Source of the DNA: Rhizobium sp. Q54
Lineage (GTDB): Bacteria; Pseudomonadota; Alphaproteobacteria; UBA2966; CAIVPW01
DNA length: 64,000 bases
Assembly: GCA_945947575.1 (NCBI GenBank)
Contig: CAMEYM010000007.1
Location: forward strand, 26,862 to 90,861
Direction of reading: 5' to 3'
The number at the start of each line of letters is the position of its first letter. Within the stretch, counting starts at the first letter, position 1. This document shows, in pieces, positions 1-31,143 of this stretch. The translations under genes were made by a program, and so were the position numbers. Below the pieces are notes generated by a model. The model had not been told where the DNA came from. It did no database searches and was given only the letters and a program-made list of their open reading frames with translations.

Positions 1-1214
1 GGTGCGGATGCTGTGGTTAGCGCCAACCGCAGGCTCTCCGGCAGGTTCAGGAAGAACCGCCGGGCGAACAGCAGTTGGTGTTTCATGTATCCGTAGAAGA
101 CCTCGTCGGCTCCGACGCCGGCGATGCCGAACGTGCATCCCTGTGCAACGGCGACCGCGCCCATCTGCTCCGCCGCCCCGACGGTGATGTTGTCGCTCGG
201 CTGCCCGAACATCCCAAACTGGTACCTCGCCGGTTCGCGGTACTCGTTGTCGGCAGCGACGACGACGCTGTGCGGCAGTCCAAGGGCGGCGGCAACCCAA
301 CGCGATGCAGCCGCCTCATCGTGGGTGGCTCCGGTCGGAAAGCTTACGGTCAGGCAATCCGGCGTCTGGCCCAGGTCACGCGCCATCATGGCGGCGATCA
401 GCGACGAGTCGACGCCACCCGAAAGAAAGATGCACGACCGTACGTCACCAGCGAGCCGAGCGCGCAGGCTGTCCGCCAACGTCTCCTGGATGCGATCCAG
501 TTGCGATTCGGTCAGCGGATGGATCTTGCCACGACCCGGCTCCCCGCGCGGCGGGGTCCAGTAGCGTTGGCGCGAAACGATGCGGCCCCGCGCAACCTTG
601 AGAATGGTTCCGGGCGGAATACGGGTGATGTTCCGGTATGCGGTGTCAGGTGCGAGCACCGACCCGGTCGAGAGGAACGGAAGCAGCCAACGGTCATTGG
701 TCTCCGGGCCGAGGAGCTTGACGAGAGTCCGAAGCTCCGAGCTGACGTACAACCCGTCGGGGGTGTCCGCCAGGTAGAGCGACTTCTCACCGAACCGATC
801 GACGGCCAGCCACCCGACCTCGCCGTCCCAAAGAGCGAACGCAAACATGCCGTCGATGACATCGAGGGACGCCGGGCCGAAATGGCGCCATGCTTCGAGC
901 AGGACCTCCGTATCGCCCGTCGTCGTGAACCTGGCGCCGAGGCCCTCGAGCCGGGCACGCAGTTCGGGAAAGTTGTAGGCCTCGCCGTTGTACGAGATGA
1001 CGTGGCTGTCGCGCGCCAATGGCTGGTTGCTCGAGGCAGAGAGGTCGATGATCGAGAGCCGCCGGTGTCCGAGGTAGACGCCGGCGCGGCGATCCAGCCA
1101 CTCGCCGCCGTTATTCGGGCCGCGATGCGCGAGGCTCGCAGTTCCTTCGCGGCCAACCACGACATCCCTCTCTGTCAGGGGGCGGCGCAGGAACAACGCG
1201 AAGACACCACACAT
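1..1214 (-). CDS. asnB: Asparagine synthase-like glutamine amidotransferase (WbpS/AsnB type, glycan amidation); runs off the left edge
   Basis: Manual translation from ATG at 1214: MCGVFA (Ntn Cys), HRGP, GHRRLSIIDL, YNGE, DTEV, GMFAFALWD, DRFGEKSLY, LSGGVDSS, GADE. It is absent from the ORF track because the stop lies outside the window. Confidence 0.92.
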   Translation of the reverse strand, partial: MCGVFALFLRRPLTERDVVVGREGTASLAHRGPNNGGEWLDRRAGVYLGHRRLSIIDLSASSNQPLARDSHVISYNGEAYNFPELRARLEGLGARFTTTGDTEVLLEAWRHFGPASLDVIDGMFAFALWDGEVGWLAVDRFGEKSLYLADTPDGLYVSSELRTLVKLLGPETNDRWLLPFLSTGSVLAPDTAYRNITRIPPGTILKVARGRIVSRQRYWTPPRGEPGRGKIHPLTESQLDRIQETLADSLRARLAGDVRSCIFLSGGVDSSLIAAMMARDLGQTPDCLTVSFPTGATHDEAAASRWVAAALGLPHSVVVAADNEYREPARYQFGMFGQPSDNITVGAAEQMGAVAVAQGCTFGIAGVGADEVFYGYMKHQLLFARRFFLNLPESLRLALTTASA

Positions 1215-1245: not shown

Positions 1246-2115
1246 TTAGGCCGCTCCCGGCGAAACCCAGTCACTCACTGCCAGCCGGCCCGCGGCCGAA
1301 GTGCCCGCCGCAGCGAGGCCGGCGCGCGACGACACGAAGTAGTAGAAGCGGCGGCCGTGGAACCCGAGGTCGTAAGCCTCCACCAACTCATAGCCCGCGC
1401 CGAACTTGCCCTCGTTGAGTTCCTTGATTGCGCGCAGCTCGCCGGACAGCGACGAGAAGTAGTTCAGGTAGGTGTCGTCGAAATAGAAGACGCAGCCGTT
1501 CGGGACGATCGGCAGGATCCGGCGGAAGATGTCCACCGTCGAGGAGTAGTAGTCGCAGTCGACAATGACCAGGAATGGCGGGCGCTTGGCGATTTCGGCA
1601 ATGACGGTGTCGGTCAGGCTCTCGCTGAACAGGCCTTTGAACAGCGTAAAGTTCTGGAAGCCATGTTCCTGGAGGCGCTTACGCACGTCCTCTTCGTTGG
1701 CGGCGAAGCTACCGGTCGTCCAGTCCTGCTGCTTGACGCCAATGCCTTCGAAGACGAAGTCGGCCTTGTCGTTGCTCGCCGGCATGCCTTCGAACGTGTC
1801 GAAGCCGTAGTGCCAGACCTTGTCGGAGCCGTTGGCGACCTCGACGAAGTGCAGCAGCCGCTGACTGAGGGCGCCTGCCGAGGTGCCGAACTCCAGGATC
1901 GACGAGGGCCGATCGAGCTTAGGGACGCGTTTCATGATGACGGCGGCAAGCGTGTACTCGCGCTTGCCGAGCGGGGCCGCCTCACGGTTCCGGACCGGCC
2001 CGTGAATCTTGTACCAGATCTTCGTCTGCAGCTTTGCCGGAAGGAGGCGCAGGATCCATCGGCCGAGCAAGACCGACAGAACGACGCGTATCCAATAGAA
2101 TCGCAAATAGATCAA
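1246..2115 (-). CDS. TylF/MycF/NovP-family O-methyltransferase
   Basis: LEFGTSAG, GFDTFEGMP, KGLFSESL, VDCDYYSST and FDD motifs; TTG start with a purine-rich RBS. Confidence 0.8.
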   Translation of the reverse strand: MIYLRFYWIRVVLSVLLGRWILRLLPAKLQTKIWYKIHGPVRNREAAPLGKREYTLAAVIMKRVPKLDRPSSILEFGTSAGALSQRLLHFVEVANGSDKVWHYGFDTFEGMPASNDKADFVFEGIGVKQQDWTTGSFAANEEDVRKRLQEHGFQNFTLFKGLFSESLTDTVIAEIAKRPPFLVIVDCDYYSSTVDIFRRILPIVPNGCVFYFDDTYLNYFSSLSGELRAIKELNEGKFGAGYELVEAYDLGFHGRRFYYFVSSRAGLAAAGTSAAGRLAVSDWVSPGAA

Positions 2116-2165: not shown

Positions 2166-3056
2166 TCAGGCCGTGCGCCAACGGCGCGGATCGATGAGGG
2201 CCTCGTCGGGCGGCGGTTCGGGCAGGTCGAATTTTGGCGAGTTCGGCCCGGCGGTATCCCAGGCGTCCAGGACCTGCCTGAGTTCCTGCGTCGTCGTGAC
2301 GCCAACCAGCACGGTGTCGACGCCGCCGACGTTGCGCGCAAAGGACAGCGCGGCCGCAAGGGGCGACAGACCCGCGAACTCGCCCGCCTTGCGAAAGGCT
2401 TCCACATAGGGCCGAACGCCCAACAGATGGGCCGGCAACTCCTCGGGGCGCATCAACAGGGCGCCCTGCAGGAACACTGATCGAACGTGAACCGCCACTC
2501 CGATGGAGGCGAGTTTCGCGACGTGACCGCTGCGCACTAGACGCTGATCGAGTGCGCTCAAGGGCAGCTGGACGATGTCGGGTCGGAATCGGCGCAGCAC
2601 GGCGTCGATCTGATTGCCGTCATAGGCCGAGACGCCGATGGCAGAGACGCGTCCGGAAGCTCTGAGCGATTCCAGCGCGCCGACAAAGCGTTCGCCAGAC
2701 GGCTTCAGCAGGTCTGCAACGTGATGAATCAGGACTCCGAAGATCTTCGATTGTCCCAAGCGCGCGAGCGACGCGTCGAGGTCCCTGTGGATATTCTCCA
2801 CTTCCGCATCACCGATGCTGGCCGCGGCCACGCGGCGAGTCTTGGTGACCAGACGAAAGGTGTGCCGTGCCGGCAGGGAACTACCGATGACCGCTTCCGA
2901 ATCGCCGTACTCCGGCGCCGTGTCGATCACTGAGATGTTGCCGGCTGCAGCCGTTGCAAGCATCCGGGCGACGTCGGCCTGCGCCGGCTTGCCGACACGA
3001 TTGGAAACGCCGTAGTTGAGCCCAAACTGGACCGCGCCGAGACCAAGCGACGCCAC
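2166..3056 (-). CDS. Aldo/keto reductase
   Basis: LGLGAVQFG, IDTAPEYGDSE, VTK, LIHH, IGVSAY, SVFLQG motifs. Confidence 0.88.
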   Translation of the reverse strand: MASLGLGAVQFGLNYGVSNRVGKPAQADVARMLATAAAGNISVIDTAPEYGDSEAVIGSSLPARHTFRLVTKTRRVAAASIGDAEVENIHRDLDASLARLGQSKIFGVLIHHVADLLKPSGERFVGALESLRASGRVSAIGVSAYDGNQIDAVLRRFRPDIVQLPLSALDQRLVRSGHVAKLASIGVAVHVRSVFLQGALLMRPEELPAHLLGVRPYVEAFRKAGEFAGLSPLAAALSFARNVGGVDTVLVGVTTTQELRQVLDAWDTAGPNSPKFDLPEPPPDEALIDPRRWRTA

Positions 3057-3058
3057 GG

Positions 3059-3760
3059 TCAGGGCTCGCCGATCCTTCCGACGCGACGCACCGTCACGAA
3101 CGCTTCGGCTGCCTCACGGCCGCACTGGCCGCCGCGCCAGCGTGCCAGGGCCTCGATGCCTTGGGCCGAACGCGGATGCGGCCACTTGCGCAACTCGCCG
3201 CGATAGGCGCGCATTGCGGCCACCTTGGCGGTCAGGGCGTCTTCGAGGTCGAGGAATTCTGTCGGGATGAAGGGGGGCAGCGTGGCGGGCGCCCATTCGG
3301 TGGACGATGGGACTTCGCACGCAAGCACGACGCGATCGGGAACTCCCGGCAGAGGGCGCGCTGCGGTCGCGACGGCTTGGTGGGTGACGCGATGGTCGAC
3401 GTTCAAGTCGCCGCCGTGGTGGGTGTAAATGCGGGTCGCCGGAAAATCTGCGAGGAAGGCTTCGACGCGGGCCACCACCTTCAGGAGCGGAATCGAGTCC
3501 ATCGCGTTGTCGGGGAAGTCGCGTAACTCGACGCTGCGACCGCCCAAGATCGCGCAAGCTTCTTCCGCCTCGCGACGCAAGGCACGGATTGCCGCCGTGC
3601 TGGTCTTGCCGCGCGACGTTAGGCCGGTCGCCAGGATCAGGATGCGAACCTCGTCGCCCCGACGCGCATGCAGGCTGAGTGCGCCGCCACAGCCGAGCAC
3701 CTCGTCGTCTGGATGCGCGAAGATGGCGGCGACGCGCGCTAGCGCGCCGGCCGACGTCAT
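3059..3760 (-). CDS. PIG-L/LmbE-family N-deacetylase
   Basis: AHPDDEVLGCGG metal motif, DFPDN, HHGGDLNVDH, AEAF; start assigned to ATG 3760. Confidence 0.9.
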   Translation of the reverse strand: MTSAGALARVAAIFAHPDDEVLGCGGALSLHARRGDEVRILILATGLTSRGKTSTAAIRALRREAEEACAILGGRSVELRDFPDNAMDSIPLLKVVARVEAFLADFPATRIYTHHGGDLNVDHRVTHQAVATAARPLPGVPDRVVLACEVPSSTEWAPATLPPFIPTEFLDLEDALTAKVAAMRAYRGELRKWPHPRSAQGIEALARWRGGQCGREAAEAFVTVRRVGRIGEP

Positions 3761-3770
3761 GCGCGAGGGC

Positions 3771-4466
3771 TTAGGGTTTGTGGGCACAGACGATGAACTC
3801 GGTGATCTCGCTGTTGAAGTACTTGTGCGAGGTGAAGCCGATGTCGTCGATCACGAATCCTGCGTTCCGCAGCAACGCTGCCAGCTTCTGCCCGTCCGGC
3901 GGGCAGTACGTCGGCACGGGCTCTTCCTTGCCGCTCAGTCCGCGGAACTCGTAGGTGTCCTCGCCGATCACCTTGCAGTTGCGGGCGAAGTCGGCGTTCG
4001 GGCCGTTGATGTCGGCGATGATCTTGGCGCCCGGCTTGGCGACCCGGAAGAATTCGCGCAGCAGAGTCTCGACGCGTTCGCGGGAGGCAAGGAGCGACAG
4101 CACGCCCATGCACACGACGTAGTCGAAATGTGCATCGGGGAACGAAAGGCGCGTGGCGCTGACGTCCACCTGGCTCAGGCGCGCACGCTGCCTCAGGTCA
4201 GGACGCGCGTCGAGCTTGCGCTCGACCATCTTGACCGCGCTGGCCGACGCGTCGAGGCCCTCGACGGTGTAGCCGCGCTCCAAGAGGTGCAGGAGGTTCA
4301 CGCCGGCGCCGAACGCGTACTCAAGCGCCAGGCCGGGCTGGGCGCCGAAGAACCAGCGCTCCAGGCGCACCAGGTCGATGGACGGGTAACGCTTTTCGGC
4401 GATGCCGTCGGCGAATGCCTTGTCCCATTTGGCGGCGACGGCGGGATGGACGAGCGTCAAAGCCAT
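3771..4466 (-). CDS. Class I SAM-dependent methyltransferase
   Basis: LEYAFGAGVN motif I-like, GLDAS, FPDAHFDYV. Confidence 0.82.
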   Translation of the reverse strand: MALTLVHPAVAAKWDKAFADGIAEKRYPSIDLVRLERWFFGAQPGLALEYAFGAGVNLLHLLERGYTVEGLDASASAVKMVERKLDARPDLRQRARLSQVDVSATRLSFPDAHFDYVVCMGVLSLLASRERVETLLREFFRVAKPGAKIIADINGPNADFARNCKVIGEDTYEFRGLSGKEEPVPTYCPPDGQKLAALLRNAGFVIDDIGFTSHKYFNSEITEFIVCAHKP

Positions 4467-4482
4467 GGAATTCTGAAACCCC

Positions 4483-5445
4483 CTAGTATCCGCGCGCCTT
4501 GTCGACAACGTTGTAGAGCGGCTCGTTGCGGACGAACCTCTGAATGTTGGCGCGCATGAGCGTGGCGCTCCGCTCGCGGTTGTAGTCAGAAAGGCCTGCG
4601 ATATGCGGCGTGATGATGACGTTGTCCATCGACCGCAACGGATGATCCGCCGGCAATGGCTCCGGGTCGGTCACGTCGAGGCCCGCGCCGGCGATGGTCT
4701 TCGCCCGCAAAGCGGCAAGCAGCGCCTCGGTATCGGTATTCGCACCGCGCGATACGGAGACGTAGAGCGCCGCCCGCTTCATCGCGGCGAACTGCGGCGT
4801 GGCCATCATGCGCATGGAGCGCGGGGTGTTCGGCGCTGCCATGACGACGACGTCAGACGCAGCCAAGCCCTCGGAAAGCCGATCGAGTGGGATGAATCGC
4901 TCGATGGCACTCACCATCGGGACGTAGTCCTCGTCGGCCGCCAGCACCTTCATCCCGAATGCGCGCGCGCGTTCGGCGACGAGGAGGCCGATGCCGCCCA
5001 CTCCGATGACTAACATCGTCTTGCGATACAACTCGAGCGGCCGCGGCTGCGACGCCGATGCGTTGCGCAGCACGAGGTGGATGTTGCGCGCCAGTGACAG
5101 CAGAAGCGCCAGCGCATGGTCCGCGACTTCGGGTCCCTGAATGATCCGACCGTTGGTGAAGACGATGTCGCTCTCGACGAACTCCGGAATCATGAACTCT
5201 TCGCAGCCGGCGCCGCCGAGGTGAACCCAGCGTAGCGTGTCGCCCGCCAGGCTAAGGATGTCGGGACTGAAGAGTTTGCGCGGACAGTTCAACAGCCCAT
5301 GGATGTCGGGCAGCGCCGCCTGGATGGCCTCCAGGGTATCGGGACAATAGGCAAACTCCGCCCCGTCGATGCCGGCAGTGATCTTGCTTGCGTGCTCGGG
5401 CGGCATGCCCCGGGACGTTACGAACAAGATGCGCGGCTTCTTCAT
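4483..5445 (-). CDS. D-2-hydroxyacid dehydrogenase (NAD-dependent)
   Basis: IGVGGIG Rossmann motif, VSRG, LDVTDPEP, TPHIAG; start MKKPRI at 5445. Confidence 0.88.
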   Translation of the reverse strand: MKKPRILFVTSRGMPPEHASKITAGIDGAEFAYCPDTLEAIQAALPDIHGLLNCPRKLFSPDILSLAGDTLRWVHLGGAGCEEFMIPEFVESDIVFTNGRIIQGPEVADHALALLLSLARNIHLVLRNASASQPRPLELYRKTMLVIGVGGIGLLVAERARAFGMKVLAADEDYVPMVSAIERFIPLDRLSEGLAASDVVVMAAPNTPRSMRMMATPQFAAMKRAALYVSVSRGANTDTEALLAALRAKTIAGAGLDVTDPEPLPADHPLRSMDNVIITPHIAGLSDYNRERSATLMRANIQRFVRNEPLYNVVDKARGY

Positions 5446-6011
5446 CGATTGGCTTCCGTTGGTGCGTGAGGCGAGGAGGGGGATGACGGGGGGGCGAGGC
5501 GCGCCATCTGTAACACGTCGCAGAACGCTCCCTCGAACCAGGCATGGTCCTTGAGAATGGCGTCGTGGAAATACCCCGCCTTCTCGAAGCAGCGGCGGCT
5601 GGCCACGTTGGGCGCAAAGATTCCCGCGCTGAGCTTGTGGAGGCGGAGCGACGCGAAAGCGAAGTCGGTCACAAGCACGACTGCCGCGCTTGCGATTCCG
5701 CGGCCCCAGTGCGGCCTGCTGCCGACGATCAGCGCCACCTCGGCGCGAGCGTGCCGCCGACGGATGTGGGTCAGGCGGATATTGCCGACGTGCGTTCCAT
5801 CGAAATGAATGGCCCACAGTGCGCTATCGGGCGAAGTGACCGTGTTTTCGACATAGGCGCGCGCACTCTGCAGCGTCTGGCCGGCCGATACTTCCGTGAA
5901 GCGTGTGACCACGGGGTCATTGAGCCAGCCAACGTAGGCTTCGGTGACTTGCGCCGGCTCTAGCGGGGCCAGCCGCACCGGACCGTCACCATTGATTGTG
6001 GGAACGCGCAC
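5442..6011 (-). CDS. GNAT N-acetyltransferase (RimJ/PseH-like)
   Basis: HVGNIRL, WGRGIAS, NVASRRCFEKAGY; GTG start at 6011 assumed. Confidence 0.8.
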   Translation of the reverse strand: MRVPTINGDGPVRLAPLEPAQVTEAYVGWLNDPVVTRFTEVSAGQTLQSARAYVENTVTSPDSALWAIHFDGTHVGNIRLTHIRRRHARAEVALIVGSRPHWGRGIASAAVVLVTDFAFASLRLHKLSAGIFAPNVASRRCFEKAGYFHDAILKDHAWFEGAFCDVLQMARLAPPSSPSSPHAPTEANR

Positions 6012-6016
6012 GGAGG

Positions 6017-7324
6017 CTAGTTGGAGCGAACCTGGAACACGGGCTCGATCGGGTGTCCGCGCAGGAAGCGCGCCGGATCGGGAGACTGGATGGCATCGCG
6101 TACCACCGCGGCCGCGCGCTCCCAAGCGGATAGGGTTAGGCGCAGCACTTCGGGATCGTCGTGAGTCAGGGCGATGTTGATGACGCCGCTGCCGAGGACG
6201 CCGTTGGCGACAAGCTCCTGGCGGAGCACGCTCGAGACGATGCGATCCTGGACGCCGCCACCGGTCACCCGGATCACCGGATGCCAGGGCATGCCTTGAA
6301 CCACAATCCTATGCGCAACTGCGGCCCGCGCGAGAATGTCGTTGATCCCAGCGATCAGGCGCTCGCCGACGGCGTGGATGCGAGCGACGGCGTTGGTGCG
6401 CTCCAGCTTGTCGATGGTGGCGAGCGACGCCGCAAGGGACAGCGTTTCGCCACCAAACGTGCCCGAGAAGAAGATGTCCTCCATGCGCCGCATGATCGCG
6501 CCGCGGCCCACGACGGCCGCGATCGGCATGCCGTTGCCCATTGCCTTGCCGAAGGCGGCGAGGTCAGGAGTCACGCCGTAGTACCTCTGTGCGCCGCCGA
6601 GGTCGAGCCGGAAGCCGGTGACGATCTCGTCGAATACCAGTACGACTCCGTAGCGCTCGGTGAGGGACCGCAATCCCTTGAGGAACTCCGCCGAGCCCCC
6701 GAGGCCCCCGACCGGCTCTATGACGATGGCGGCGAAGTCGTTCCGGTTGTGCGCCAGAACGTCTTCAAATACCTGCAGGTCTCCGTAGGGGAGGGAGATC
6801 GATAAGTCGCGCACCGCGTTCGGCACGCCGAGGTGCCGTGTCGTGGTGCCAATGTACCAGTCGTGCCAGCCGTGATAGCCGCACACGATGACGCGGTCGC
6901 GGCCGGTGTGCGCTCGTGCGAGCCGCACCGCCGCCGACGTGGCGTCGGATCCATTCTTGCCGAAACGGACCATCTCGGCGCATGGGATGAGGCGCACCAA
7001 GCGCTCGGCAACTTGCACCTCGAGTTCGGTGGCGAGCGAAAAGATGATGCCTTTTTCCAGCTGCGCCCGAATCGCAGCGTCGACGTCCGGATCGCAATAG
7101 CCGAGGACGATGGGCATCAGGCCGAGCACGTAGTCGATGTACTCGTTGCCGTCGACGTCCCAGACTCGGCATCCCTTGCCACGGTCGAGAAACAGGGGCG
7201 AAGCGCCGCGCACGAAGTTCATCGCCGACTTCGAGAATGTCTGTGAGGCGAGAGGAATCGTCTTGAGCGCGCGCTCATAGAGTGCGTTGGATCGGGCAAA
7301 CGTGGGCGTGCGTGCGTTTGTCAC
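6017..7324 (-). CDS. Class III PLP aminotransferase (GSA-aminomutase/KdnA-like)
   Basis: DVDGNEYIDY, KNGSDATSAAVRLAR, FDEIVTGFR, PDLAAFGKAMGNG, SGTFGG. Confidence 0.9.
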   Translation of the reverse strand: MTNARTPTFARSNALYERALKTIPLASQTFSKSAMNFVRGASPLFLDRGKGCRVWDVDGNEYIDYVLGLMPIVLGYCDPDVDAAIRAQLEKGIIFSLATELEVQVAERLVRLIPCAEMVRFGKNGSDATSAAVRLARAHTGRDRVIVCGYHGWHDWYIGTTTRHLGVPNAVRDLSISLPYGDLQVFEDVLAHNRNDFAAIVIEPVGGLGGSAEFLKGLRSLTERYGVVLVFDEIVTGFRLDLGGAQRYYGVTPDLAAFGKAMGNGMPIAAVVGRGAIMRRMEDIFFSGTFGGETLSLAASLATIDKLERTNAVARIHAVGERLIAGINDILARAAVAHRIVVQGMPWHPVIRVTGGGVQDRIVSSVLRQELVANGVLGSGVINIALTHDDPEVLRLTLSAWERAAAVVRDAIQSPDPARFLRGHPIEPVFQVRSN

Positions 7325-7328
7325 GAGA

Positions 7329-8132
7329 CTACTTGCGTTTGCGGAACCGCATCAGCTTGAGCGGCGCGAAGTCTCCTACCGCGGGCAGGCGGCACGACAG
7401 CTTGTTGATCTCGGCGAGATAGTCGGGATCCTTGTCCGCCGGCGTGACGTAGGCGTTGAACACGCGGCTGATCAAATAGTAGAGGCTGGCGAATCGGTCC
7501 GTCTCGACGTGCTCGAGCTGCTCCGGTAGCCGCGCCAGCACATCGCTCTCGCGCATGTACAGGTTGTGCCACTTGTAAGAGATCGCCGGCAGGCCGACGG
7601 ACTGGCGCAACTCGTTGATGCGCTCCTGACCCTCCTCGAAGTGCTCGATCATCACGATCTCGCCGCCGGGCGGCAGGATCGCGGCGAGATTAGCGAGGGC
7701 CCGCGCTTGGTCATCGCGTGAAGGCAGGTTGATCAAGCACCGCACGGTGAAGATCTGGGGGAACATACCCAGGTGGCGCAAGTCCTCCAGGACGCTGGCG
7801 ACGGCGAACTTCAGCGGGACTCGAGGAGAACGCTCCTTAGCGAGACCGTTGGCGACGGCGATCATCCGATCCGAATAGTCCACGCCCGTTAGCGGTGCTT
7901 CGAACCACTCGGTCATCTGCAGCAAGTTGACGCCGTTGCCACAGCCGACCTCTAGCGCCGGAACCTTGCGATCTAGGTGCTGCTGCAAAGCCGCGACCTC
8001 CAGCTCCTTGGCGAGTGGGTCGTACATCGTTGCCTTGAGGTCGGCGCCGTAGCGTTCGGCCTGGCCGTTCCAGAAGGCGCGGATCTCGTCGACGGAGTGG
8101 CCTGTTTGCATGCGGGTGGCTGCTTCGGTCAT
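7329..8132 (-). CDS. Class I SAM-dependent methyltransferase
   Basis: LEVGCGNG, GVDYS; ATG 8132 overlaps the upstream stop (ATGA). Confidence 0.82.
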   Translation of the reverse strand: MTEAATRMQTGHSVDEIRAFWNGQAERYGADLKATMYDPLAKELEVAALQQHLDRKVPALEVGCGNGVNLLQMTEWFEAPLTGVDYSDRMIAVANGLAKERSPRVPLKFAVASVLEDLRHLGMFPQIFTVRCLINLPSRDDQARALANLAAILPPGGEIVMIEHFEEGQERINELRQSVGLPAISYKWHNLYMRESDVLARLPEQLEHVETDRFASLYYLISRVFNAYVTPADKDPDYLAEINKLSCRLPAVGDFAPLKLMRFRKRK

Positions 8133-8875
8133 GGACGGGCCTGTATGGCTGAGGAAGGGGCTGGCTGCGTGATTCCCAGCAGGTGCGGCGCGCGCATGGC
8201 TGCCGATAGCGCCTGCATCCAGGTGTACCCGGCGGGCAGCAGCGCGATCAATTCGCGGATGCGGGCGAGGTCGGCAGGCGTGTCCAGCGTCCAGCGGACG
8301 AAGCCAAAGTCGGCGGGCGCCAGCAGATTGCCAACGCGGAAGCCGCCCGCGCCATATTGCGGATGCGATCCGCGAATGAAGGGCGTTACATGCTCGCGCA
8401 GGAATGGATGACGCGCTTCCTCGTCGGCGCGGCGCAAGGCGTCGGCGCTGAATACTTCGCAGTCGAGGCCGTCCGGGAAGCTGCGTACATTGGCGTTCGA
8501 GGTGTAGTCGTAGGAGTCGGTGTCGAACAGCGCGAACGTCTGGTCGATCAGCGCAGGATCGATCATCGGGCAATCCGCGGTAAGGCGCACGACGACGCGT
8601 GCGCCGGTGCGGTCTACAACGCCGACGAACCGGCCGAGGACATCGTGCTCGTCGCCGCGAAACGTCTCGACGCCCAGGCGCTCGCAGAGCGCGACCACTG
8701 GATCGTCGGTCGCATTGGCGGTCGTAGCGACGACGACGTGGTCGATGGACGTCGCCTTGCGCACTCGGGCCAGCATGTGCTCCAGGGCGGGCGACCCGCC
8801 GATGTCGACCAGCACCTTGCCAGGCAGGCGCGTCGACGTCATGCGCGCCTGGATGACAGCCACGACGCGCTGCAT
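8129..8875 (-). CDS. SpsF/PseF-like cytidylyltransferase (CTP_transf_3)
   Basis: IQARMTSTRLPGKVL, RGDEHDVLGRF, VRLTADCP, REHVT, WTLDTPAD. Confidence 0.88.
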   Translation of the reverse strand: MQRVVAVIQARMTSTRLPGKVLVDIGGSPALEHMLARVRKATSIDHVVVATTANATDDPVVALCERLGVETFRGDEHDVLGRFVGVVDRTGARVVVRLTADCPMIDPALIDQTFALFDTDSYDYTSNANVRSFPDGLDCEVFSADALRRADEEARHPFLREHVTPFIRGSHPQYGAGGFRVGNLLAPADFGFVRWTLDTPADLARIRELIALLPAGYTWMQALSAAMRAPHLLGITQPAPSSAIQARP

Positions 8876-9843
8876 CAGCGGGCGCGCAGCCGGACGTCCG
8901 CGCTGGCGAGGATCGGCCGCATGCGGTCCGCCAGTTCCAAGGCGATGCGACGCTGGCCCTCGGCGGTGCTGGCGCCGATGTGAGGCGTCACCAAAACGCG
9001 CGGATGGCCGAGGAGGGGGTGCGCATAGGACGTACCGGAGGTCTTGTCGAACGGCGGCTCTGGATACAGGACGTCGACGGCCAGGCGCGCGACGCGGCCG
9101 TCGTTCAGTGCCTCCAGCATGGCGGCGTCATCGACCACGGCGCCGCGACACGTGTTGATCAGCAGCAGGCCTGGCTTCGCCGTGACCAACAGCGGGCGCG
9201 AGACCAATGCTCGCGTTCCCTCTGTCAGCGGCACGTGCAGGGTGATCAGGTCGGCCTGCTTGAATACGTCGTTCAACGAAGCCAGGATGCGCCCGCCCAT
9301 GCGTTCGAACGCCGCCGCGTCGCGCGGCGCCGGATCGTGTCCGAGCAGCTTGCAGCCAAAGCTCTGCAGGCGCTTGGCGACCGCCATACCGGCGCGTCCC
9401 AGGCCGACGATGCCGACTGTCATCTCGGCGATCTCTCGGCCTTCGAACAACTGGCGGCGGAAGTCGCCACGTCTCACGGCGGCTGCTGCATCGACGACGT
9501 TGCGCGCCAGCACGACGACGAGGCCGACAGTGAACTCCGCCACCGCCACCGTGTTCTGGTCCGGCGTCGTAATGAGGGCGATCCGCTGGGCCTCCACCGC
9601 ACGCAGATCGATGTTGTCGGTACCCACCCCGGCGCGGCCAATGCACCGCAGGCGCTGGGCTACCCGAAGGAGGTCGGTATCGACGGACGTCACGCTCTTG
9701 ATTACCGCGGCGTCGAAGCCCGGAATCGTGTCGAGCAGCTCGGCGCGGGAAAGGCCCAGATGGACGTCGACCTCGGCATATGCGCGCATGGACTCGACAC
9801 CGTCAGCATGGATCGATTCGAGGATGACGATGCGCGGAGTCAT
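8875..9843 (-). CDS. D-3-phosphoglycerate dehydrogenase-like 2-hydroxyacid dehydrogenase
   Basis: RAGVGTDNID, GIVGLGRAG, LHVPLT, INTCRG, DVLYPEP, TPHIGAST. Confidence 0.87.
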   Translation of the reverse strand: MTPRIVILESIHADGVESMRAYAEVDVHLGLSRAELLDTIPGFDAAVIKSVTSVDTDLLRVAQRLRCIGRAGVGTDNIDLRAVEAQRIALITTPDQNTVAVAEFTVGLVVVLARNVVDAAAAVRRGDFRRQLFEGREIAEMTVGIVGLGRAGMAVAKRLQSFGCKLLGHDPAPRDAAAFERMGGRILASLNDVFKQADLITLHVPLTEGTRALVSRPLLVTAKPGLLLINTCRGAVVDDAAMLEALNDGRVARLAVDVLYPEPPFDKTSGTSYAHPLLGHPRVLVTPHIGASTAEGQRRIALELADRMRPILASADVRLRAR

Positions 9844-10889
9844 CGCGAGGACGGTTGCAAGGCACGATATGGAACGACGGTGCGCCCGGCGGGAAACGGC
9901 ACTTCGGCGACGGCCTCGCCGCGGGCGAGGGCGACGATGTCGTCGTAGAGCGGTACGCCGGCGCAGATCGTCACGGTGACGCTGCCGCTCGGACGTGGAT
10001 TGATCTCGACGACGTACGGCATGCCGGCCGCGTCGAACATCACGTCGCAGTCGTACAGCCAGCTCAGATTGAAATGCTCGATCAGGCTCCGGCCGAGTTG
10101 CAGGAGTGCCGGACTGTTCACGACAGTATGCCCTTCGTTCGGCTGCTGCGAGTTCAGCCGTCTGCGTGCGACGACGCGAACGGGCTGGCCGTGCCAGCCC
10201 AGCATGTCGATGTCGTGCACGGGCTCTTCGAGACGCTGCATCACGATCGCTGGCAACGAAGACTCGCTGTGCGCCAGCAGGTGTTCGCGGTAGTAGGTGA
10301 CGCCGCAGTGGATCTCCCGCGCCCCCGGCAAAGGGGGCGCAACACCCTCGATATCCTTTTGGATAACCACAGCGCCGCGGCCACCGCGTCCGCCCGATGG
10401 CTTCACCACAGCCTCGCCACGCGCCTGCAGCATCTTGTCGACCGCCACGGTCAGCTGGGCGAGGGTGGTGACCTCGGTCCACTCTGGAACGGCAAGCCCG
10501 GCCCGGGCGATTGCTGCGTGCGTTGCCGCCTTAGAGGAGAACACCCGAATGGTCGCCGCGTCGGTGCACGCCAGCAGGCGGCCGCCCTTCTCGAGTGCCG
10601 CCCGGCCAGCGGACAGTGCGATCGCTTCCTCGTCCGACGAAGGCAGGACGATCTGCACGCCCTCCCGCTCGGCCACCGCGCGAACGGCGTCGACGTAGCC
10701 GGCTTCGGTGCCGCGCGGAACGACATGAAATGCATCGCAGAAGTGCCGTCCCACCGCCGACGGACTGGCATCGACGCCGACGGTTCGGATGCGGTAGCGC
10801 GTCGAGTTGCGCATGTACTGCAACGCCTGCGGCGCAAGCTCGCCGCCGACGCACGTCATCAACAGCGTGGCTTCAGGCTTCGAGGACAT
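9840..10889 (-). CDS. ATP-grasp domain protein (probable amide ligase)
   Basis: PSSDEE, VVKPSGGRGGRG, MQRL, EINPRPSGS. Confidence 0.85.
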   Translation of the reverse strand: MSSKPEATLLMTCVGGELAPQALQYMRNSTRYRIRTVGVDASPSAVGRHFCDAFHVVPRGTEAGYVDAVRAVAEREGVQIVLPSSDEEAIALSAGRAALEKGGRLLACTDAATIRVFSSKAATHAAIARAGLAVPEWTEVTTLAQLTVAVDKMLQARGEAVVKPSGGRGGRGAVVIQKDIEGVAPPLPGAREIHCGVTYYREHLLAHSESSLPAIVMQRLEEPVHDIDMLGWHGQPVRVVARRRLNSQQPNEGHTVVNSPALLQLGRSLIEHFNLSWLYDCDVMFDAAGMPYVVEINPRPSGSVTVTICAGVPLYDDIVALARGEAVAEVPFPAGRTVVPYRALQPSSR

Positions 10890-11925
10890 GCACGGGGACC
10901 GGGTCGTCGCATCGCAAGGCAAGGGGCGCGCGGCGACCGAGCACCTTGCCCCAATCGCGCGGCGCCAGACCGGACATGCCGGGCAGCGGACGCTTCAGGG
11001 CCAGGTTGCTCTCCTCGAAGGTTTCGCCGGCGGCAATGTCGCGCCCGGCGACGATGATCCGTCGGAAGCGTGGTGCCTGGCCGCGCTCTTGCTGCGTCAG
11101 CGTCTTGGCGTAGCTACCAAGCACGACGTGCGCATCGCGGACTCCGCGAACCAACTCCGCCATCCCCGCCTGATCCAGGGAGATGTGATGGTCGAAGCCG
11201 GGCCGCTTGGTGTCGAGGGTGAAGTGCTTCTCGATCATGCAGGCCCCGGCCGCGACGGCAAGCGCCGCTGCCGACGTGCCTACGGAATGGTCCGAGAATC
11301 CCACTGGAGCGCGGTAGCGCGCTTCCATCCAGCGCATTGCGCCGAGGTTGAGGTACTCCCGCGCCGTGGGGTACAGCGAGGTGCATTGGAACAGGCCCAG
11401 CTCCATTGCGCCGGCTTCCCGCGCCGCGGCCACTGCCTCGTCGATCTCGGCAGAATCGGCCATTCCGGTGGACATCAGTATGGTGCGCCCGGTGCGCGCC
11501 GCATGCTGCAGGGCGGGCACGTTCGTCAGGAGGCCGGACGAGATCTTGTGAGCCGCCGGTTCGAGGCGTTCGATCCAATCGATCGTCGGCGCGTCGCCAG
11601 CGGTAGTGAAGGCCTCCATCCCCAGGAAGCGCGCGAAGTCGAACATGGCCGCGGTGTCCTCGCGGCTCAGCACGGCGCGGCTGAACAGAAGGTAGCTCTC
11701 GGACCCACGCATATAGTTCTGGTCGGGATCCATCGTCTGCAGTTTGATCGCATCCGCGCCCGCGCGTGCGGCGGCCTCGATCATGGCCGCGCAGACAGAC
11801 GCGTCGCCTTCGTGATTGATGCCGATCTCGGCGATGACGGCTACAGGCTGGCCGACGCCAATCCGGCGGCGCCCGAAGCGGATTGCGGCCGCACTGCGCA
11901 AGAGATCAGAGGGCGACGATTGCAT
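10873..11925 (-). CDS. NeuB-family nonulosonate synthase (PseI/SpsE-like) with SAF domain
   Basis: IAEIGINHEG, DAIKLQT, KISSG, STGM, CTSLYPT, GFSDH, IEKHFTLD, RRIIVAGRDI. Confidence 0.92.
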   Translation of the reverse strand: MQSSPSDLLRSAAAIRFGRRRIGVGQPVAVIAEIGINHEGDASVCAAMIEAAARAGADAIKLQTMDPDQNYMRGSESYLLFSRAVLSREDTAAMFDFARFLGMEAFTTAGDAPTIDWIERLEPAAHKISSGLLTNVPALQHAARTGRTILMSTGMADSAEIDEAVAAAREAGAMELGLFQCTSLYPTAREYLNLGAMRWMEARYRAPVGFSDHSVGTSAAALAVAAGACMIEKHFTLDTKRPGFDHHISLDQAGMAELVRGVRDAHVVLGSYAKTLTQQERGQAPRFRRIIVAGRDIAAGETFEESNLALKRPLPGMSGLAPRDWGKVLGRRAPLALRCDDPVPVHVLEA

Positions 11926-13726
11926 CCGCGGCTCTCTTGCCCGACCGGCCGTCGACGTGCCCGAAGTAGTGCGCCACCACCTGCGCGCGGCGTGCCGCCT
12001 TGTCGGCCCATCGCCGACGAATCTCGTTTAGGGGAAGCATCAGGAGGGTACGCAATGCCTCATGGAACCCCGGCTGCGCGCGATCGAAGACGAAGAAGGC
12101 CTCGTCGAAGGCGAGCCGCGCATTCGCAAACAACGGCAAGTCGCGGGGATGATCGAGGAATATGAAGGGCCTGCCGGAGACGGCGCCCCAGGCGATGCTG
12201 CTGGTCGCGCGGGAGGAAAGGACGATGTCCGCATCCGGGATCAGGAATGAAACGTCGTCACGGCCGCCATATACCTCGACGTTCTTGTGTCGAGCGGCGG
12301 CCACCAGGATCGGGTCAGGGTCGCAGTAGCGCACCGCGGGGTACGGTTTGAAGACCACGCGGAACGGCACGACACCAAGCACTTGTTCCACCAGCGCGAC
12401 GTCGTTGGCCGCCGCCTCGAGGTCGCTCAGGCCGCGCGAGCCGATCATCTGGCTCTCATGGCCAGCATACAGGGTCGAGGAGATCACCAGTAGGGTCGGC
12501 GCCGTGGCACGCGAGGGACGATAGGTTGCACACCGCGAGAACTCGGCCGGCATGCCGACGGCCACGCACTTGGCGGAGTTGAGCGGGGACCGCTCAGACA
12601 CTTCCGCAGCCGCCGGACTGTAGGTGAAGAAGTAGTCCGCGGTGTTGCCCTCGAAGTACGCTTCGATGCGCTGATTGTTCTGCGAGATTTCGCGCGCGGT
12701 TCCGTGCTGGAAACCGATCACCGGCAAGCCCACGCTGCGGCATACGTGAAAGAGGGCCGGAGTCTCGGGCAGCATCAGCATGTTGGTGAGCACGCCGCGC
12801 AGCGACCGGCGGGGCCGCTGCGCGAGGGCCGTGCGCCACCAATGCAGTGCGCCGGTGTAGCGGTCGGCGGCCTCTAGGAGGTCCTCCAGGATCACAGCGC
12901 GGACGACGCTCCAGACGAACTTCGGTACGAGCGGTTGCAGGTGGTGCTCGATCACCGTGGTTATCAGGCGCCCCAGGCGCTCGCGCTCCGGATCGGCCGC
13001 CATTGTCTGAGATTGACTCAGCCAGGCCAGTCCGTAGCCGCGCATGGCTAGGCTGGTCACGGCCTCGCGCAACAGGGAATTCTCGCGCAGGATCAAGTAG
13101 GTGCCGCGCGGCGAGCGGAAGGAGCGATCGCGCCAGAAGCCGGAAGTCGCCTGGAAACCGAGTTTGGCGCCGCGACCGAGGCGCTGGCGATCCCAGAACC
13201 GGCTCGTCTCCTGTTGCGGGCCGGCAGCTGCGGCGACCGCTGCGGGAACCTCAAACGTCTGCACGTGGGCGACCTGGCGCAACAGGCGCTCCCAATGCGG
13301 GCGCTGGGCGACCGCGTACGGCAGGCCTTCCTTCGCAGGCAGAAGCACGGCCACGCGCCGGCCGGCATCGCCGGCGCGCAGGGTCATCGCGTTGAGCACC
13401 AAGCCGCCGACCCGCAGCACCCTCTGCGCCAGCACGATGCCGTGGCCCTTGATGGCCGTGTCCAGATGGCACCCTGCGTAGAGATCGAGCGAGCACTGGT
13501 GGATCGCTTCGCCCAGGGTATCGTGCAGGATCACTCCGGCGGGCTCGGCCGGACTCGCGCTGCCGGCCAACAGGAGCGCGGGAGCCACGCTGCGTAGCTC
13601 CGCGCTGCTCGGCAGACCGGCACGACGGGCCGCGTCCAACACCTCGCGGCTGTCGACGAAGGCAAGCTCGACATCCTGCAAGCCGAGGGCCGGCGCCGGG
13701 TTTCGGATGGCGCGTGCTGTCTTCAT
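11906..13726 (-). CDS. Uncharacterised 606-aa protein with a GT-B-like C-terminus; candidate nonulosonate transferase
   Basis: Long ORF overlap-coupled to both neighbours; GFQHG, VFKPYP, DIVLSSRATSS motifs. Confidence 0.6.
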   Translation of the reverse strand: MKTARAIRNPAPALGLQDVELAFVDSREVLDAARRAGLPSSAELRSVAPALLLAGSASPAEPAGVILHDTLGEAIHQCSLDLYAGCHLDTAIKGHGIVLAQRVLRVGGLVLNAMTLRAGDAGRRVAVLLPAKEGLPYAVAQRPHWERLLRQVAHVQTFEVPAAVAAAAGPQQETSRFWDRQRLGRGAKLGFQATSGFWRDRSFRSPRGTYLILRENSLLREAVTSLAMRGYGLAWLSQSQTMAADPERERLGRLITTVIEHHLQPLVPKFVWSVVRAVILEDLLEAADRYTGALHWWRTALAQRPRRSLRGVLTNMLMLPETPALFHVCRSVGLPVIGFQHGTAREISQNNQRIEAYFEGNTADYFFTYSPAAAEVSERSPLNSAKCVAVGMPAEFSRCATYRPSRATAPTLLVISSTLYAGHESQMIGSRGLSDLEAAANDVALVEQVLGVVPFRVVFKPYPAVRYCDPDPILVAAARHKNVEVYGGRDDVSFLIPDADIVLSSRATSSIAWGAVSGRPFIFLDHPRDLPLFANARLAFDEAFFVFDRAQPGFHEALRTLLMLPLNEIRRRWADKAARRAQVVAHYFGHVDGRSGKRAADAIVAL

Positions 13727-19633: not shown

Positions 19634-20974
19634 CTATGGCTGCGAGGCCGTATGGCGCAGGGTCCACTTGCCGTTCTCGTACTTCCATATGTGCGGGGAA
19701 CGGAAGCGATCGCAGAGGTGGTCGAAATACGCACGGTCGAGGACCGGCTGCTCGAACATCTTCGACGCGACCGGGAACTCCTCGACAGGCAACGACAGGT
19801 ACCGCAGCAGCTCATCGAGGAAGCGCTCAGGGTACTCGCCATCGAAGCGCCGCACCAACGCCACGGCCTCGTCGCGCGTGATGTCCTGGTTGCGCGTTTC
19901 TTGCGCGGCATCATAGGTGGCACGGCCGATGCCGAACTTGATGAACGTAGTGTAGTAGTGCAGGTCGTCGAGCTTGTCGTCGATTGAGTTGTACTTGCTG
20001 TAGGTGCCGACCGTCCGCTCGGGGGAGGCCCGGAAGTCGCTGTGCTGCACCGCGTGGTAGTAGGCCGCCTGCGGGTGCCAGCGCTCGTAATAGCCGATGT
20101 AATGGATCTGCACGCCGCACTCGCGCAGCGCATTGGTGTCGGCCGGCAGGTACCAGGCGTAGTCGACAGGCTCCAGGCCGTAGTCCGCCTCCAGCTGCGC
20201 CAGCGGAACGCCTCCCAAGAGGAACTCGGAGCGGCCCTCGGCGCTGAAATAGCGTGCGTCCCGTGAAGCCTGTTCGTTCTCCCGCACGGGGTTGCCGTAC
20301 TCCGCCTCGTTCTCGCCGTAGAAGACGAGCTGCACGTCGTGCAGCAGGGCAACCTTGGGCGCCAAGTTCTTCTGGCCCAGGATGAACGGCTGAAACGGGT
20401 GCAGCAGGTTCTCAACCGCAAGGCGCGTGAGCAGCCGATGCACCCGCGCGTTCGGCGAATGCAGGATATTGTCGTAACCCGCTCGGATCCAGGACTGCTG
20501 GTTGTGCCAGCCCCAGTCCGTGTAGATGTGCGGGGCCCAGGTGATCGTCAGCGGGTGCATGCCGTATTTGTGCTTCAGCAGCCAAGCGGCATAGAAGCTG
20601 TCCTTGCCGCCCGAGCCCGGGGCGATGCAGTCATAGCGACCGTCGTTGCGGCGGTAGCGGTCGCACAGCGCTCGCATTTCCTGGTCGCGGCTGCTCCAGT
20701 CGATGCCAGCCTTCTTTTGGGCGAAGTGACATGCATCGCATACGCCGTGGGCATCGAAGCGGATTGTGGACTTCTTCTCACCCTTGGCGTGCTTGAACTC
20801 GATGGAGGAACTCGGGCGCTGGTTGGAGATGACGCACGACCGGCAGAACTGGACGTCGGGCGGCAGACCGTACAAAGCCTCCGTCTCGTTCAGTCCTGGC
20901 GCAAATCGGCTCGTGTCGACAAGCTGATGGCGTGGATGACGCGCGCGCGATCCCGCGGCCGCTTCGACCTTCAT
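19634..20974 (-). CDS. N-acetyl sugar amidotransferase (PseA/WbuX/WbpG family)
   Basis: CRSCV, CDAC, SGGKDS PP-loop, YGENEAEYG, IDDK..DLHYY, KFGIGRA. Confidence 0.9.
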   Translation of the reverse strand: MKVEAAAGSRARHPRHQLVDTSRFAPGLNETEALYGLPPDVQFCRSCVISNQRPSSSIEFKHAKGEKKSTIRFDAHGVCDACHFAQKKAGIDWSSRDQEMRALCDRYRRNDGRYDCIAPGSGGKDSFYAAWLLKHKYGMHPLTITWAPHIYTDWGWHNQQSWIRAGYDNILHSPNARVHRLLTRLAVENLLHPFQPFILGQKNLAPKVALLHDVQLVFYGENEAEYGNPVRENEQASRDARYFSAEGRSEFLLGGVPLAQLEADYGLEPVDYAWYLPADTNALRECGVQIHYIGYYERWHPQAAYYHAVQHSDFRASPERTVGTYSKYNSIDDKLDDLHYYTTFIKFGIGRATYDAAQETRNQDITRDEAVALVRRFDGEYPERFLDELLRYLSLPVEEFPVASKMFEQPVLDRAYFDHLCDRFRSPHIWKYENGKWTLRHTASQP

Positions 20975-20982
20975 TACTCGTC

Positions 20983-30448: not shown

Positions 30449-31143
30449 CGGTTCGTATGCGTCACCTCGCGCTCGGCGAGGATGGCCCGGGCGAACAAGA
30501 GGTCGAGGTCGGTGTCGATGTCGATGGAGCGCTCCGGCGGCATCATGTAGGCCCGCGTCTCATCGGCAATGAAACGCCGCGTCTTCGCCAGCCAATTGGG
30601 CCGGGCCACGTACACTGCACCGTTGGGCGTGACGACCACGCTCGAGTCCTGACGGCGGGCCGAGTCTCCTGGCATCACCTTGCGGAGCGATCCCCTCGCG
30701 TCCACGGAATAGAACCATTCGAGGGGCTTCGACACCCGGGTCACCGAAACGCAGGCGGGTACATCCTCCGCTATGCAAGTGCGCACGCAGGCGTCGATAT
30801 CGGCACCGGTGCGGAACGGCGAAGTGGCTTGGAGGAGCACGATGTAGTCGTACGGCTCGCTGAGAGCCTCAAGTGCGTGGAACAGGACGTCGTAGATAGA
30901 GGCGGTATCTGTCGCGAGCGTGGCGGGACGCTGAAAAGGCACCTCACAGCCGCAGGATCCTGCCACCGAGGCGATCTCATGGTCGTCCGTCGACAGGATG
31001 ACGCGCGAGAGGGTCGTGGCTTCCGCGGCGGCCGCTACGGACCAGACCACCAGCGGCCGCCCGCCCAGGTCGAGCACGTTCTTCCTCGGCAGGCCCTTCG
31101 AGCCGCCGCGAGCGGCGATGACCGCCAGGGTTCGCGGTTTCAC
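30445..31143 (-). CDS. neuA: Acylneuraminate cytidylyltransferase (NeuA/LegF-like)
   Basis: ARGGSKGLPRKN, STDD, LQATSPFR, PNGAVY, SIDIDT; GTG start at 31143. Confidence 0.92.
   Translation of the reverse strand: MKPRTLAVIAARGGSKGLPRKNVLDLGGRPLVVWSVAAAAEATTLSRVILSTDDHEIASVAGSCGCEVPFQRPATLATDTASIYDVLFHALEALSEPYDYIVLLQATSPFRTGADIDACVRTCIAEDVPACVSVTRVSKPLEWFYSVDARGSLRKVMPGDSARRQDSSVVVTPNGAVYVARPNWLAKTRRFIADETRAYMMPPERSIDIDTDLDLLFARAILAEREVTHTNR

Follow-up and report, generated by a model that had tools for sequence, protein, structure and literature searches.

A PIG-L deacetylase and an ATP-grasp ligase in a pseudaminic-acid-type operon of Rhizobium sp. Q54: a possible module for N-acyl exchange

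Genes of the locus

The window analysed here, i.e., the whole 64,000-nucleotide stretch of contig CAMEYM010000007.1 from Rhizobium sp. Q54, carries on its minus strand a long glycan operon that, according to Pfam and NCBIfam matches, spans approximately 31.5 kb down to position 1 of the window. Four genes of this operon, located between positions 3059 and 10889, are the subject of this study. They encode a PIG-L/LmbE-family de-N-acetylase (3059-3787; PF02585, 86.1 bits with a cutoff of 28.2), an ATP-grasp carboxylate-amine ligase of 349 amino acids (aa) that Pfam assigns to the PylC-like_N/ATPgrasp_Ter type (9840-10889) and two D-2-hydroxyacid dehydrogenases (2-HADHs). One of the latter, PGDHl, resembles the short (type III-like) phosphoglycerate dehydrogenases (PGDHs) and is located at 8875-9843 (PF02826, 168 bits, and PF00389). 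The other one, HADH2, is located at 4483-5445 (PF02826, 155 bits). An earlier note, made from the sequence alone, had grouped these four genes as a module that swaps one acyl group of a nonulosonic acid (NulO) for another. As it had stated, all four are present in the operon, and Pfam matches and coordinates place each of them on the minus strand. The G+C content amounts to 64-68% over window positions 1-30000.

The open reading frames (ORFs) of both dehydrogenases extend too far upstream, as they cover 8875-10482 (535 aa) and 4483-5817 (444 aa), with the 2-Hacid_dh_C matches starting only at residues 218 and 156, respectively. The true starts are the ATG at 9843 for PGDHl (MTPRIV) and the ATG at 5445 for HADH2 (MKKPRILF), giving proteins of approximately 320 aa each. 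Likewise, the ATP-grasp ORF reads 9840-10922 and its actual start is the ATG at 10889, which is also the end that the earlier note had given. The gene directly upstream is NeuB_1, which encodes a NeuB/PseI-like nonulosonate synthase (10873-11925, minus strand; PF03102, 220 bits). Its stop codon (TGA, 10875-10873) lies within the ligase gene, resulting in an overlap of 17 nt. Further junctions read from the sequence are the ATGA at 9843-9840, common to the stop of the ligase gene and the start of PGDHl, and the TGATG at 8875, common to the stop of PGDHl and the start of the following gene, which encodes an SpsF/KdsB-like CTP_transf_3 cytidylyltransferase (8129-8875, minus strand; PF02348, 104 bits). 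The earlier claim that the ligase and the PGDH-like gene follow neuB directly and in overlap therefore holds. By coordinates, additional ATGA overlaps are present between the cytidylyltransferase gene and MT_b (8132-8129) and between a GNAT gene and HADH2 (5445-5442). MT_b is a class I SAM methyltransferase (7329-8132, minus strand; PF13649 and PF08241) whose real start, MTEAATRMQ, overlaps the upstream stop, and the GNAT gene encodes an N-acetyltransferase (5442-6011, minus strand; PF13302, 80 bits). Altogether, the existence of the four genes, their location on the minus strand and their translational coupling within one NulO operon are confirmed.

The ATP-grasp ligase

Two ATP-grasp domain models match the ligase above their cutoffs, PF15632 (63.6 bits; cutoff 29.1) and PF21360 (41.7 bits; cutoff 27). 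The AlphaFold2 model of the protein (pLDDT 93.9, pTM 0.91) has a three-domain ATP-grasp fold, of which the top Foldseek match is 2pn1, a structural-genomics protein with no function assigned, followed by PurK, RizA, biotin carboxylases and PylC, with a probability of 1.00. In an alignment of 28 ligase homologues, K163, R168-G169-G170-R171 and E295-x-N297-x-R299 vary little or not at all. K163, the glycine-rich loop and the E-x-N motif with the arginine that follows it correspond to the usual ATP and Mg residues of the ATP-grasp fold.

A word-indexed search retrieved 73 relatives of the ligase, nearly all of which are metagenomic. Those with a name are mostly called 'carbamoylphosphate synthase large subunit', others 'ATP-grasp domain-containing protein' or 'hypothetical protein'. 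The first of these names was rejected for the ligase of the window, as PRK12767-type models reach only 66-76 bits with cutoffs of 218-390. Moreover, the ligase is a single module of 349 aa, whereas the carbamoyl-phosphate synthase large subunit has a duplicated architecture of 1073 aa, and its matches in the Protein Data Bank (PDB) cover residues 272-340 only. A search of the ESM Atlas returned unnamed ATPgrasp_Ter clusters only. With an exhaustive profile search, 553 representative clusters were found at E ≤ 1e-30 and 4,689 at E ≤ 1e-10. Homology supports a predicted function as carboxylate-activating ligase, and nothing more specific. Natural fusions of this ligase type are rare. They combine it with CTP_transf_3 (P0123), with a PseG-like GT28 domain (P0180) or with a GNAT domain (P0195), and they tie the ligase physically to the sugar pathway.

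Co-occurrence across genomes

Ligase loci were collected from a scan of one genome per species (26 loci) and from a metagenome scan (80 loci), which adds up to 106. The proteins of the window were mapped onto these loci by tblastn, and clustering of the ligases at 90% identity resulted in 87 non-redundant loci. Direct neighbours of the ligase were counted in the 74 loci with enough upstream and the 68 loci with enough downstream sequence. For gene presence, the counts refer to the 27 loci that have at least 5 kb on both sides of the ligase. As a control, 17 loci without ligase were used that are of the pseudaminic acid (Pse) type and anchored on AT3, a class III (GSA-aminomutase-like) aminotransferase encoded in the window at 6017-7324 (minus strand; PF00202, 194 bits). 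They originate from 401 genomes of the phylum. Among these genomes, the ligase is strong in a single one (G152) besides that of the window itself, too few to assess co-occurrence, and AT3 orthologues are present in 19, mostly without ligase.

The upstream neighbour of the ligase is a NeuB_1-type synthase in 60/74 loci. A 2-HADH is located immediately downstream in 32/68 loci, namely PGDHl in 30 and HADH2 in 2. CTP_transf_3 is present in 24 of the 27 well-flanked loci, AT3 in 23, a GNAT or a PseG-GNAT fusion in 19 and an AsnB-like gene, often directly upstream of NeuB, in 11. The earlier note had named genome co-occurrence as a check on its module, and the comparison with the control bears it out: PIG-L is present in 25/27 ligase loci vs 3/17 control loci and any 2-HADH in 17/27 vs 0/17 (Fisher p = 6e-7 and 1.5e-5, respectively, values that overstate the contrast, as related genomes are not independent). 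The control loci keep a core of PseB, DegT, an aldo-keto reductase (AKR; 2166-3056 in the window, minus strand), CTP_transf_3 and AT3. Because PIG-L and the 2-HADHs are frequent in ligase loci and rare or absent in control loci, they go together with the ligase. The commoner backbone comprises AT3, AKR and the cytidylyltransferase. The linkage is seen in metagenome-assembled genomes (MAGs) of Alpha-, Beta- and Gammaproteobacteria, Bdellovibrionota, Planctomycetota and Verrucomicrobia. In addition, the NeuB genes of ligase loci, of which 67 adjoin the ligase gene and 6 do not, cluster apart from those of control loci, with a weak node support of 0.23.

Some ligase loci contain further genes. 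A second, divergent ATP-grasp paralogue (23-26% identity) is found at L003:7984-8901, at L009:5709-6611 and in L122 from 15092 onward, and a metallophosphoesterase and an SDR epimerase are present in L001, L003, L085 and L122. The second paralogue and the metallophosphoesterase hint at two successive ligations and a dephosphorylation. An APS-kinase gene occurs in six ligase loci (L012:10386-10880 and five others), and KAS III and SDR genes occur in five each, which suggests sulfated or fatty-acyl-type variants of the sugar.

The PIG-L deacetylase and its partners

The translation of the PIG-L gene contains AHPDDE and VDH, corresponding to the HPDD and DH metal/base motifs of the family. The protein remains below the cutoffs of the BshB/MshB equivalogs (38, 33 and 20 bits vs 182-224). 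In the three control loci that have a PIG-L gene (L066:4363-5073, minus strand; L069:16386-17075, plus strand; L070:12104-12805, plus strand), it adjoins either a formyltransferase gene (L070) or a gene for a WbqC-like protein (L066 and L069). Since PIG-L adjoins these genes where the ligase is lacking, it appears to open an acyl swap that different second halves can complete. In the ligase loci, the need for a deacetylase would follow from the persistence of a PseH-like GNAT in 19/27 of them, so that an amine first has to be exposed. Replacement of PseH by the ligase was also considered and, given these same GNATs, is ruled out as a general case.

The WbqC-like partner of PIG-L (PF08889) is accompanied by a DegT gene, and WbqC could likewise serve as the second half of such a swap. 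The commonest extra gene of the ligase loci encodes a fused PseG-like and GNAT protein of approximately 475 aa (L008:3267-4691 and 24 other loci), which often adjoins PIG-L. In the window, the PseG-like and GNAT functions are encoded by separate genes.

The two hydroxyacid dehydrogenases

PGDHl is closest to the catalytic domains of the human and mycobacterial PGDHs, its best PDB match being human PHGDH (6plf, 4.9e-55). It does not reach the cutoff of the SerA equivalog TIGR01327 (283 vs 454 bits), matches profile positions 1-304 of 525 only and lacks the regulatory ASB/ACT domains. The genome contains a separate, long SerA-like gene (G000:C22) that is 35% identical to PGDHl. Judged from its sequence, PGDHl is a dedicated paralogue.

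Among 34 orthologues of PGDHl, the catalytic Arg, Glu and His (R231, E260 and H286) are invariant, and K47 (31 Lys, 3 Arg), S48, R68 and R127/R128 are invariant or nearly so. The latter residues align to R54, S55, R75 and R135 of human PHGDH, of which R54, R75 and R135 are presumably the cationic residues that bind the distal phosphate. Because this cationic distal pocket is kept, a substrate with a distal anion is expected, and PGDHl probably binds a 2-hydroxy or 2-oxo acid of that kind. Candidate substrates are 3-phosphoglycerate/phosphohydroxypyruvate and 2-oxoglutarate/2-hydroxyglutarate; lactate or hydroxybutyrate would be less likely. Plain lactate or glycerate was considered as the product of PGDHl as well and, in view of the conserved anion pocket, was judged less likely. 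This partly modifies the donor proposed in the earlier note, a D-hydroxyacid formed by reduction of a 2-oxoacid: coupling of a 2-HADH to the ligase in nearly half of the loci speaks for such a donor, but the pocket of PGDHl argues against the lactate and hydroxybutyrate versions of it.

The catalytic set of HADH2 (R233, E262 and H281) is conserved in 13 orthologues. Its best NCBIfam match is NF041369 (Dhydh_Halo), with 171 bits, below the cutoff. Within the 87 loci, HADH2 is adjacent to MT_a, a second class I SAM methyltransferase (3771-4508 in the window, minus strand; PF08241 and PF13649), in 13 of its 16 occurrences. HADH2 occurs alone three times and MT_a never does. HADH2 and MT_a thus make up a separable pair, and PGDHl and HADH2 do not belong to a single unit. 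From the acyl-swap module of the earlier note, the linkage, the coupling and PIG-L as the first half are retained; the idea of the two dehydrogenases as joint members is not, and a 2-HADH is dispensable and would be either an optional supplier or a later tailoring enzyme.

A possible N-acyl exchange

The genes for a PseB-type dehydratase, a DegT aminotransferase, a GNAT and a PseG-like hydrolase are found in one operon, and this set recurs in related loci. We tentatively propose that the genes under study represent the tailoring half of a Pse-type NulO operon in which PIG-L and the ATP-grasp ligase exchange an N-acyl group, a reading that we consider possible, somewhat short of probable. PseB, PseC, the PseH-like GNAT and PseG would yield a di-N-acetylated sugar, from which PIG-L would strip a single N-acetyl group; its most likely target is the GlcNAc-derived one that is destined for N5. 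The ligase would then convert a free carboxylic acid into an acyl-phosphate and pass the acyl group on to the freed amine, with no need for CoA or ACP. The swap could take place at the stage of the hexose, the free NulO or the CMP-NulO. The acid would most likely be an anionic D-2-hydroxyacid handled by PGDHl, which is plausible as a donor. Candidates are 3-phospho-D-glycerate or D-glycerate, which would result in an N-glyceroyl group that the methyltransferases of the operon could O-methylate, or D-2-hydroxyglutarate. The dehydrogenase would be an optional, non-obligate enzyme for supply or tailoring, with HADH2 and MT_a as a second, separable accessory pair.

A glycerate-type donor is attractive because N-glyceroyl and O-methylated glyceroyl forms of Pse exist and the operon has three to four methyltransferases. 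Tannerella forsythia makes Pse5Am7Gra, and the enzymes responsible for the modification are stated to be unknown (PMC5378307, PMC5420450), in agreement with the remark in the earlier note that many of the installing enzymes are unassigned. C. jejuni makes NulOs with 2,3-di-O-methylglyceroyl groups (bioRxiv 10.64898/2026.04.20.719630). In the literature searched, no paper was found that assigns a reaction to the pair of PIG-L and ATP-grasp in NulO clusters. A more specific version is doubtful as a whole. In it, once PIG-L has acted, the ATP-grasp clade coupled to NeuB would introduce, as an acyl-phosphate, a (phospho)glyceroyl group or a different D-2-hydroxyacyl group that is anionic, with the PGDH paralogue feeding or tailoring and the methyltransferases finishing the group.

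Several points weigh against an exchange with an anionic hydroxyacid. The well-flanked locus L005 contains the ligase and PGDHl and lacks PIG-L, and no alternative deacetylase is recognisable by Pfam in this locus. None of the enzymes has a close relative that is characterised, and for the ligase no characterised near relative was found in the PDB by sequence or fold. The presence of 2-HADHs is scattered over the ligase tree, with at least 12 changes and with differences between close relatives. When ligases followed by PGDHl (n = 35, i.e., 34 loci and the window) are compared with those of loci without 2-HADH (n = 8), only V/A 224 and F/L 273 differ consistently. No charge-changing residue of the ligase separates loci with and without 2-HADH, and no donor switch is evident. 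As only these two conservative positions differ, the acid shows no visible dependence on the dehydrogenase, and the donor acid is probably the same across the ligase family. Furthermore, with 3-phosphoglycerate abundant, its supply does not obviously call for a dedicated PGDH. The ATP-grasp-GNAT fusion and the GNATs that come right behind the ligase would agree with an aminoacyl group to be capped later, and nothing that was tested shows the acyl donor to be a hydroxyacid rather than an amino acid. Finally, co-occurrence in operons gives neither the order of the reactions nor their substrates. The module itself is real, and the interpretation of its donor chemistry is partly supported.

Alternative explanations

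Aminoacyl NulOs are known, e.g., N-methyl-glutamyl-legionaminic acid, and the ligase might join an amino acid (e.g., Ala, Gly, Ser or Glu) to the amine that PIG-L has exposed. This aminoacyl group would be made or capped by the 2-HADHs, AT3, the GNAT and the methyltransferases, one possible route being the conversion of 3-phosphoglycerate via phosphohydroxypyruvate into phosphoserine. The L-amino-acid ligase RizA and PylC are among the nearest characterised folds. In the clade without 2-HADH, a GNAT often comes right after the ligase, and together with fusion P0195 this would suit an aminoacyl group that is N-acetylated; the similarity of ligases with and without 2-HADH, which reveals no switch in specificity, agrees with such a donor as well. 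In C. difficile, the ATP-grasp protein CDR20291_0245, annotated as carbamoyl-phosphate synthetase, is required for a peptidylamido sugar on flagellin (PMC5207246). The frequency of AT3 in ligase loci points in the same direction, but AT3 is part of a core that is found approximately ten times as often as the ligase, mostly in the absence of the latter. Moreover, the gene most commonly coupled directly to the ligase is a 2-HADH and no amino-acid-forming enzyme, and for common amino acids dedicated supply enzymes are unnecessary. An amino-acid donor is unlikely on balance, although as the main rival it deserves serious attention.

The ligase could also act on the alpha-keto-acid end that NeuB makes, by activating the C1 carboxylate of the NulO or another sugar carboxylate, resulting in an amide or ester. 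A 2-HADH would then act on the 2-oxo group or supply the nucleophile, and the amine freed by PIG-L would be left free or formylated. In VanH/VanA, the hydroxyacid is the nucleophile. That the order NeuB, ATP-grasp, 2-HADH is the most conserved feature of the loci would fit such a step. There is a precedent in Cj1438, which acts on glucuronate and of which the C-terminal domain uses ATP to form the amide of a sugar carboxylate with an amine that is phosphorylated, after which a phosphatase acts (PMC11800397), and CMP-NulOs with a free amine exist (bioRxiv 10.64898/2026.04.20.719630). However, a cytidylyltransferase is present in 24/27 ligase loci, and activation with CMP requires an intact 2-keto acid. 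We know of no NulO that is amidated at C1 or reduced at C2. As the strong association with PIG-L is left unaccounted for as well, activation of a sugar carboxylate is improbable. Even less credit can be given to the view that the four genes, each with an independent tailoring or housekeeping-like role, have nothing in common but their place in a large mosaic glycan operon, with no pathway step that unites them. NulO islands are indeed mosaic, 2-HADHs are often gained and lost, and PIG-L is missing from L005. Such a view is hard to reconcile with a linkage that recurs across several phyla and classes of MAGs, the sharp contrast with the control loci, the overlapping start and stop codons and the existence of domain fusions, and it is very improbable. 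The N-acyl exchange by PIG-L and the ligase hence remains the reading we prefer, at the tentative level given above.

Comparison with known systems

The canonical pathway to CMP-pseudaminic acid of C. jejuni and H. pylori consists of PseB, PseC, PseH, PseG, PseI and PseF. The window and most related loci resemble it in having a PseB-type dehydratase, DegT, a GNAT, a PseG-like protein, a NeuB-family synthase and a cytidylyltransferase. The difference is that the synthase and the cytidylyltransferase of the window are below the PseI and PseF equivalog cutoffs. In addition, the window contains PIG-L, the ATP-grasp ligase, both 2-HADHs, AT3, the AKR, three methyltransferases and an AsnB-like enzyme.

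A deacetylase is also part of a NulO cluster in Ca. Kuenenia stuttgartiensis. In the CMP-NulOs of this organism, one amine is free and one formyl group is present, and a formyltransferase is encoded in the cluster along with the deacetylase (bioRxiv 10.64898/2026.04.20.719630). In this Leg-type (legionaminic acid) cluster, as in control locus L070 with its PIG-L and formyltransferase, the new acyl group is a formyl group introduced by a folate-dependent transferase, whereas in the window the partner of the deacetylase is an ATP-grasp enzyme, which implies a free acid. An adjacent and coupled pair of a D-2-hydroxyacid dehydrogenase and an ATP-grasp enzyme is known from VanH/VanA, in which the dehydrogenase supplies an unusual substrate to the ligase. 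VanA is of the Ddl family and makes an ester, unlike the window ligase, which is PylC-like/ATPgrasp_Ter and located in a sugar pathway. The latter has no Dala_Dala_lig match in Pfam, and the VanH models score at most 130 bits with cutoffs of 540-750; only the logic of the gene pair is common to both systems.

The C-terminal domain of Cj1438, together with Cj1437, Cj1436 and Cj1435, is similar in that it performs an ATP-dependent amide formation on a sugar, using a phosphorylated metabolite from dedicated enzymes that is later dephosphorylated (PMC11800397). In this case, the sugar provides the carboxylate and the reaction occurs on a polymer, and no relation in sequence or fold is found among the top matches of the window ligase. 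In Shewanella (sfmE, SO_3265; PMC3765264) and in C. difficile (CDR20291_0245; PMC5207246), the full glycans of flagellin require an ATP-grasp gene. Both genes are located in flagellin-glycan/NulO operons, and when they are lost the glycan is truncated or lighter. Their ATP-grasp subfamilies are different ones (Pfam 13535, ATP-grasp_4), no partners of the PIG-L or 2-HADH kind have been reported for them, and they are implicated genetically. PGDHl, in turn, has its size of approximately 320 aa, the lack of ACT/ASB domains and the catalytic and cationic residues in common with type III (short) PGDHs and the catalytic domain of human PHGDH (6plf, 1wwk, 2ekl). It differs from these by the replacement of R54 by Lys in 31/34 orthologues, by its location in a glycan operon and by its 35% identity to the SerA-like gene of its own genome.

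The N-acyl groups of bacterial sialic-acid-like sugars set surface charge, and effects on phage and immune recognition have been reported. In the literature searched, the enzymes installing acyl groups other than acetyl, acetimidoyl and formyl are unassigned, and the cassette described here is a concrete and widely recurring candidate. If the more specific version of the proposal is true, it would provide the missing genetic route to N-glyceroyl and di-O-methylglyceroyl NulOs and define a protein family with 553 representative clusters (E ≤ 1e-30). The proposed route requires ATP and a free acid only. It would also give tools for the chemoenzymatic synthesis of modified pseudaminic acids.

Neighbouring genes

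In the order of transcription, the operon starts with a CTP_transf_3 gene, a GT4 glycosyltransferase gene, a PseB-type dehydratase gene (28134-29189) and an ABC exporter. The next block is of the Leg type and consists of DegT, NeuB_2, a formyltransferase, a dehydratase and a hydrolysing epimerase. It is followed by HisF, HisH and a CBS-nucleotidyltransferase and then by an orphan ORF, DegT_1 and a PseG-like gene, behind which another orphan ORF (606 aa) and NeuB_1 lead into the stretch under study. Downstream of PIG-L, the AKR gene is followed by genes for a TylF-like methyltransferase (1246-2115, minus strand) and an AsnB-type glutamine amidotransferase that is cut by the window edge (3-1214, minus strand; GATase_7 and Asn_synthase).

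NeuB_1 is below the equivalog cutoffs for both TIGR03586 (PseI; 245 vs 340 bits) and TIGR03569 (270 bits), and the cytidylyltransferase at 8129-8875 has no PseF match (TIGR03584). The latter is presumed to be the CMP-NulO synthetase of the Pse branch. The GNAT at 5442-6011, the sole one of the Pse branch, is likely the PseH equivalent. AT3 scores 368 bits with NCBIfam NF004856, below the cutoff of 486.

The operon contains two CTP_transf_3 genes (30445-31488 and 8129-8875, both on the minus strand) and two NeuB genes. These pairs are consistent with the production of two nonulosonates, one of the Leg and one of the Pse type, from one transcript region. The core of PseB, DegT, AKR, SpsF-like cytidylyltransferase and GSA-aminomutase-like aminotransferase (2166-3056 and 6017-8875 in the window; loci L058-L074) is found in 19/401 genomes of the phylum, and the O-antigen clusters of L. 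pneumophila Sg6/Sg12 carry a gene set similar to the AKR/AT3 core (PMC3694923). Between HisF and the hydrolysing epimerase, approximately 1.3 kb (19634-20983, minus strand) contains long ORFs with no Pfam match. Judged by its position, this region should encode the amidotransferase partner of HisH and HisF. The 606-aa ORF (11906-13726, minus strand), coupled between the PseG-like gene and NeuB_1, has no Pfam or NCBIfam match; weak homologues of it (18-39% identity) are found in 24 of the 87 ligase loci, mostly directly upstream of NeuB.

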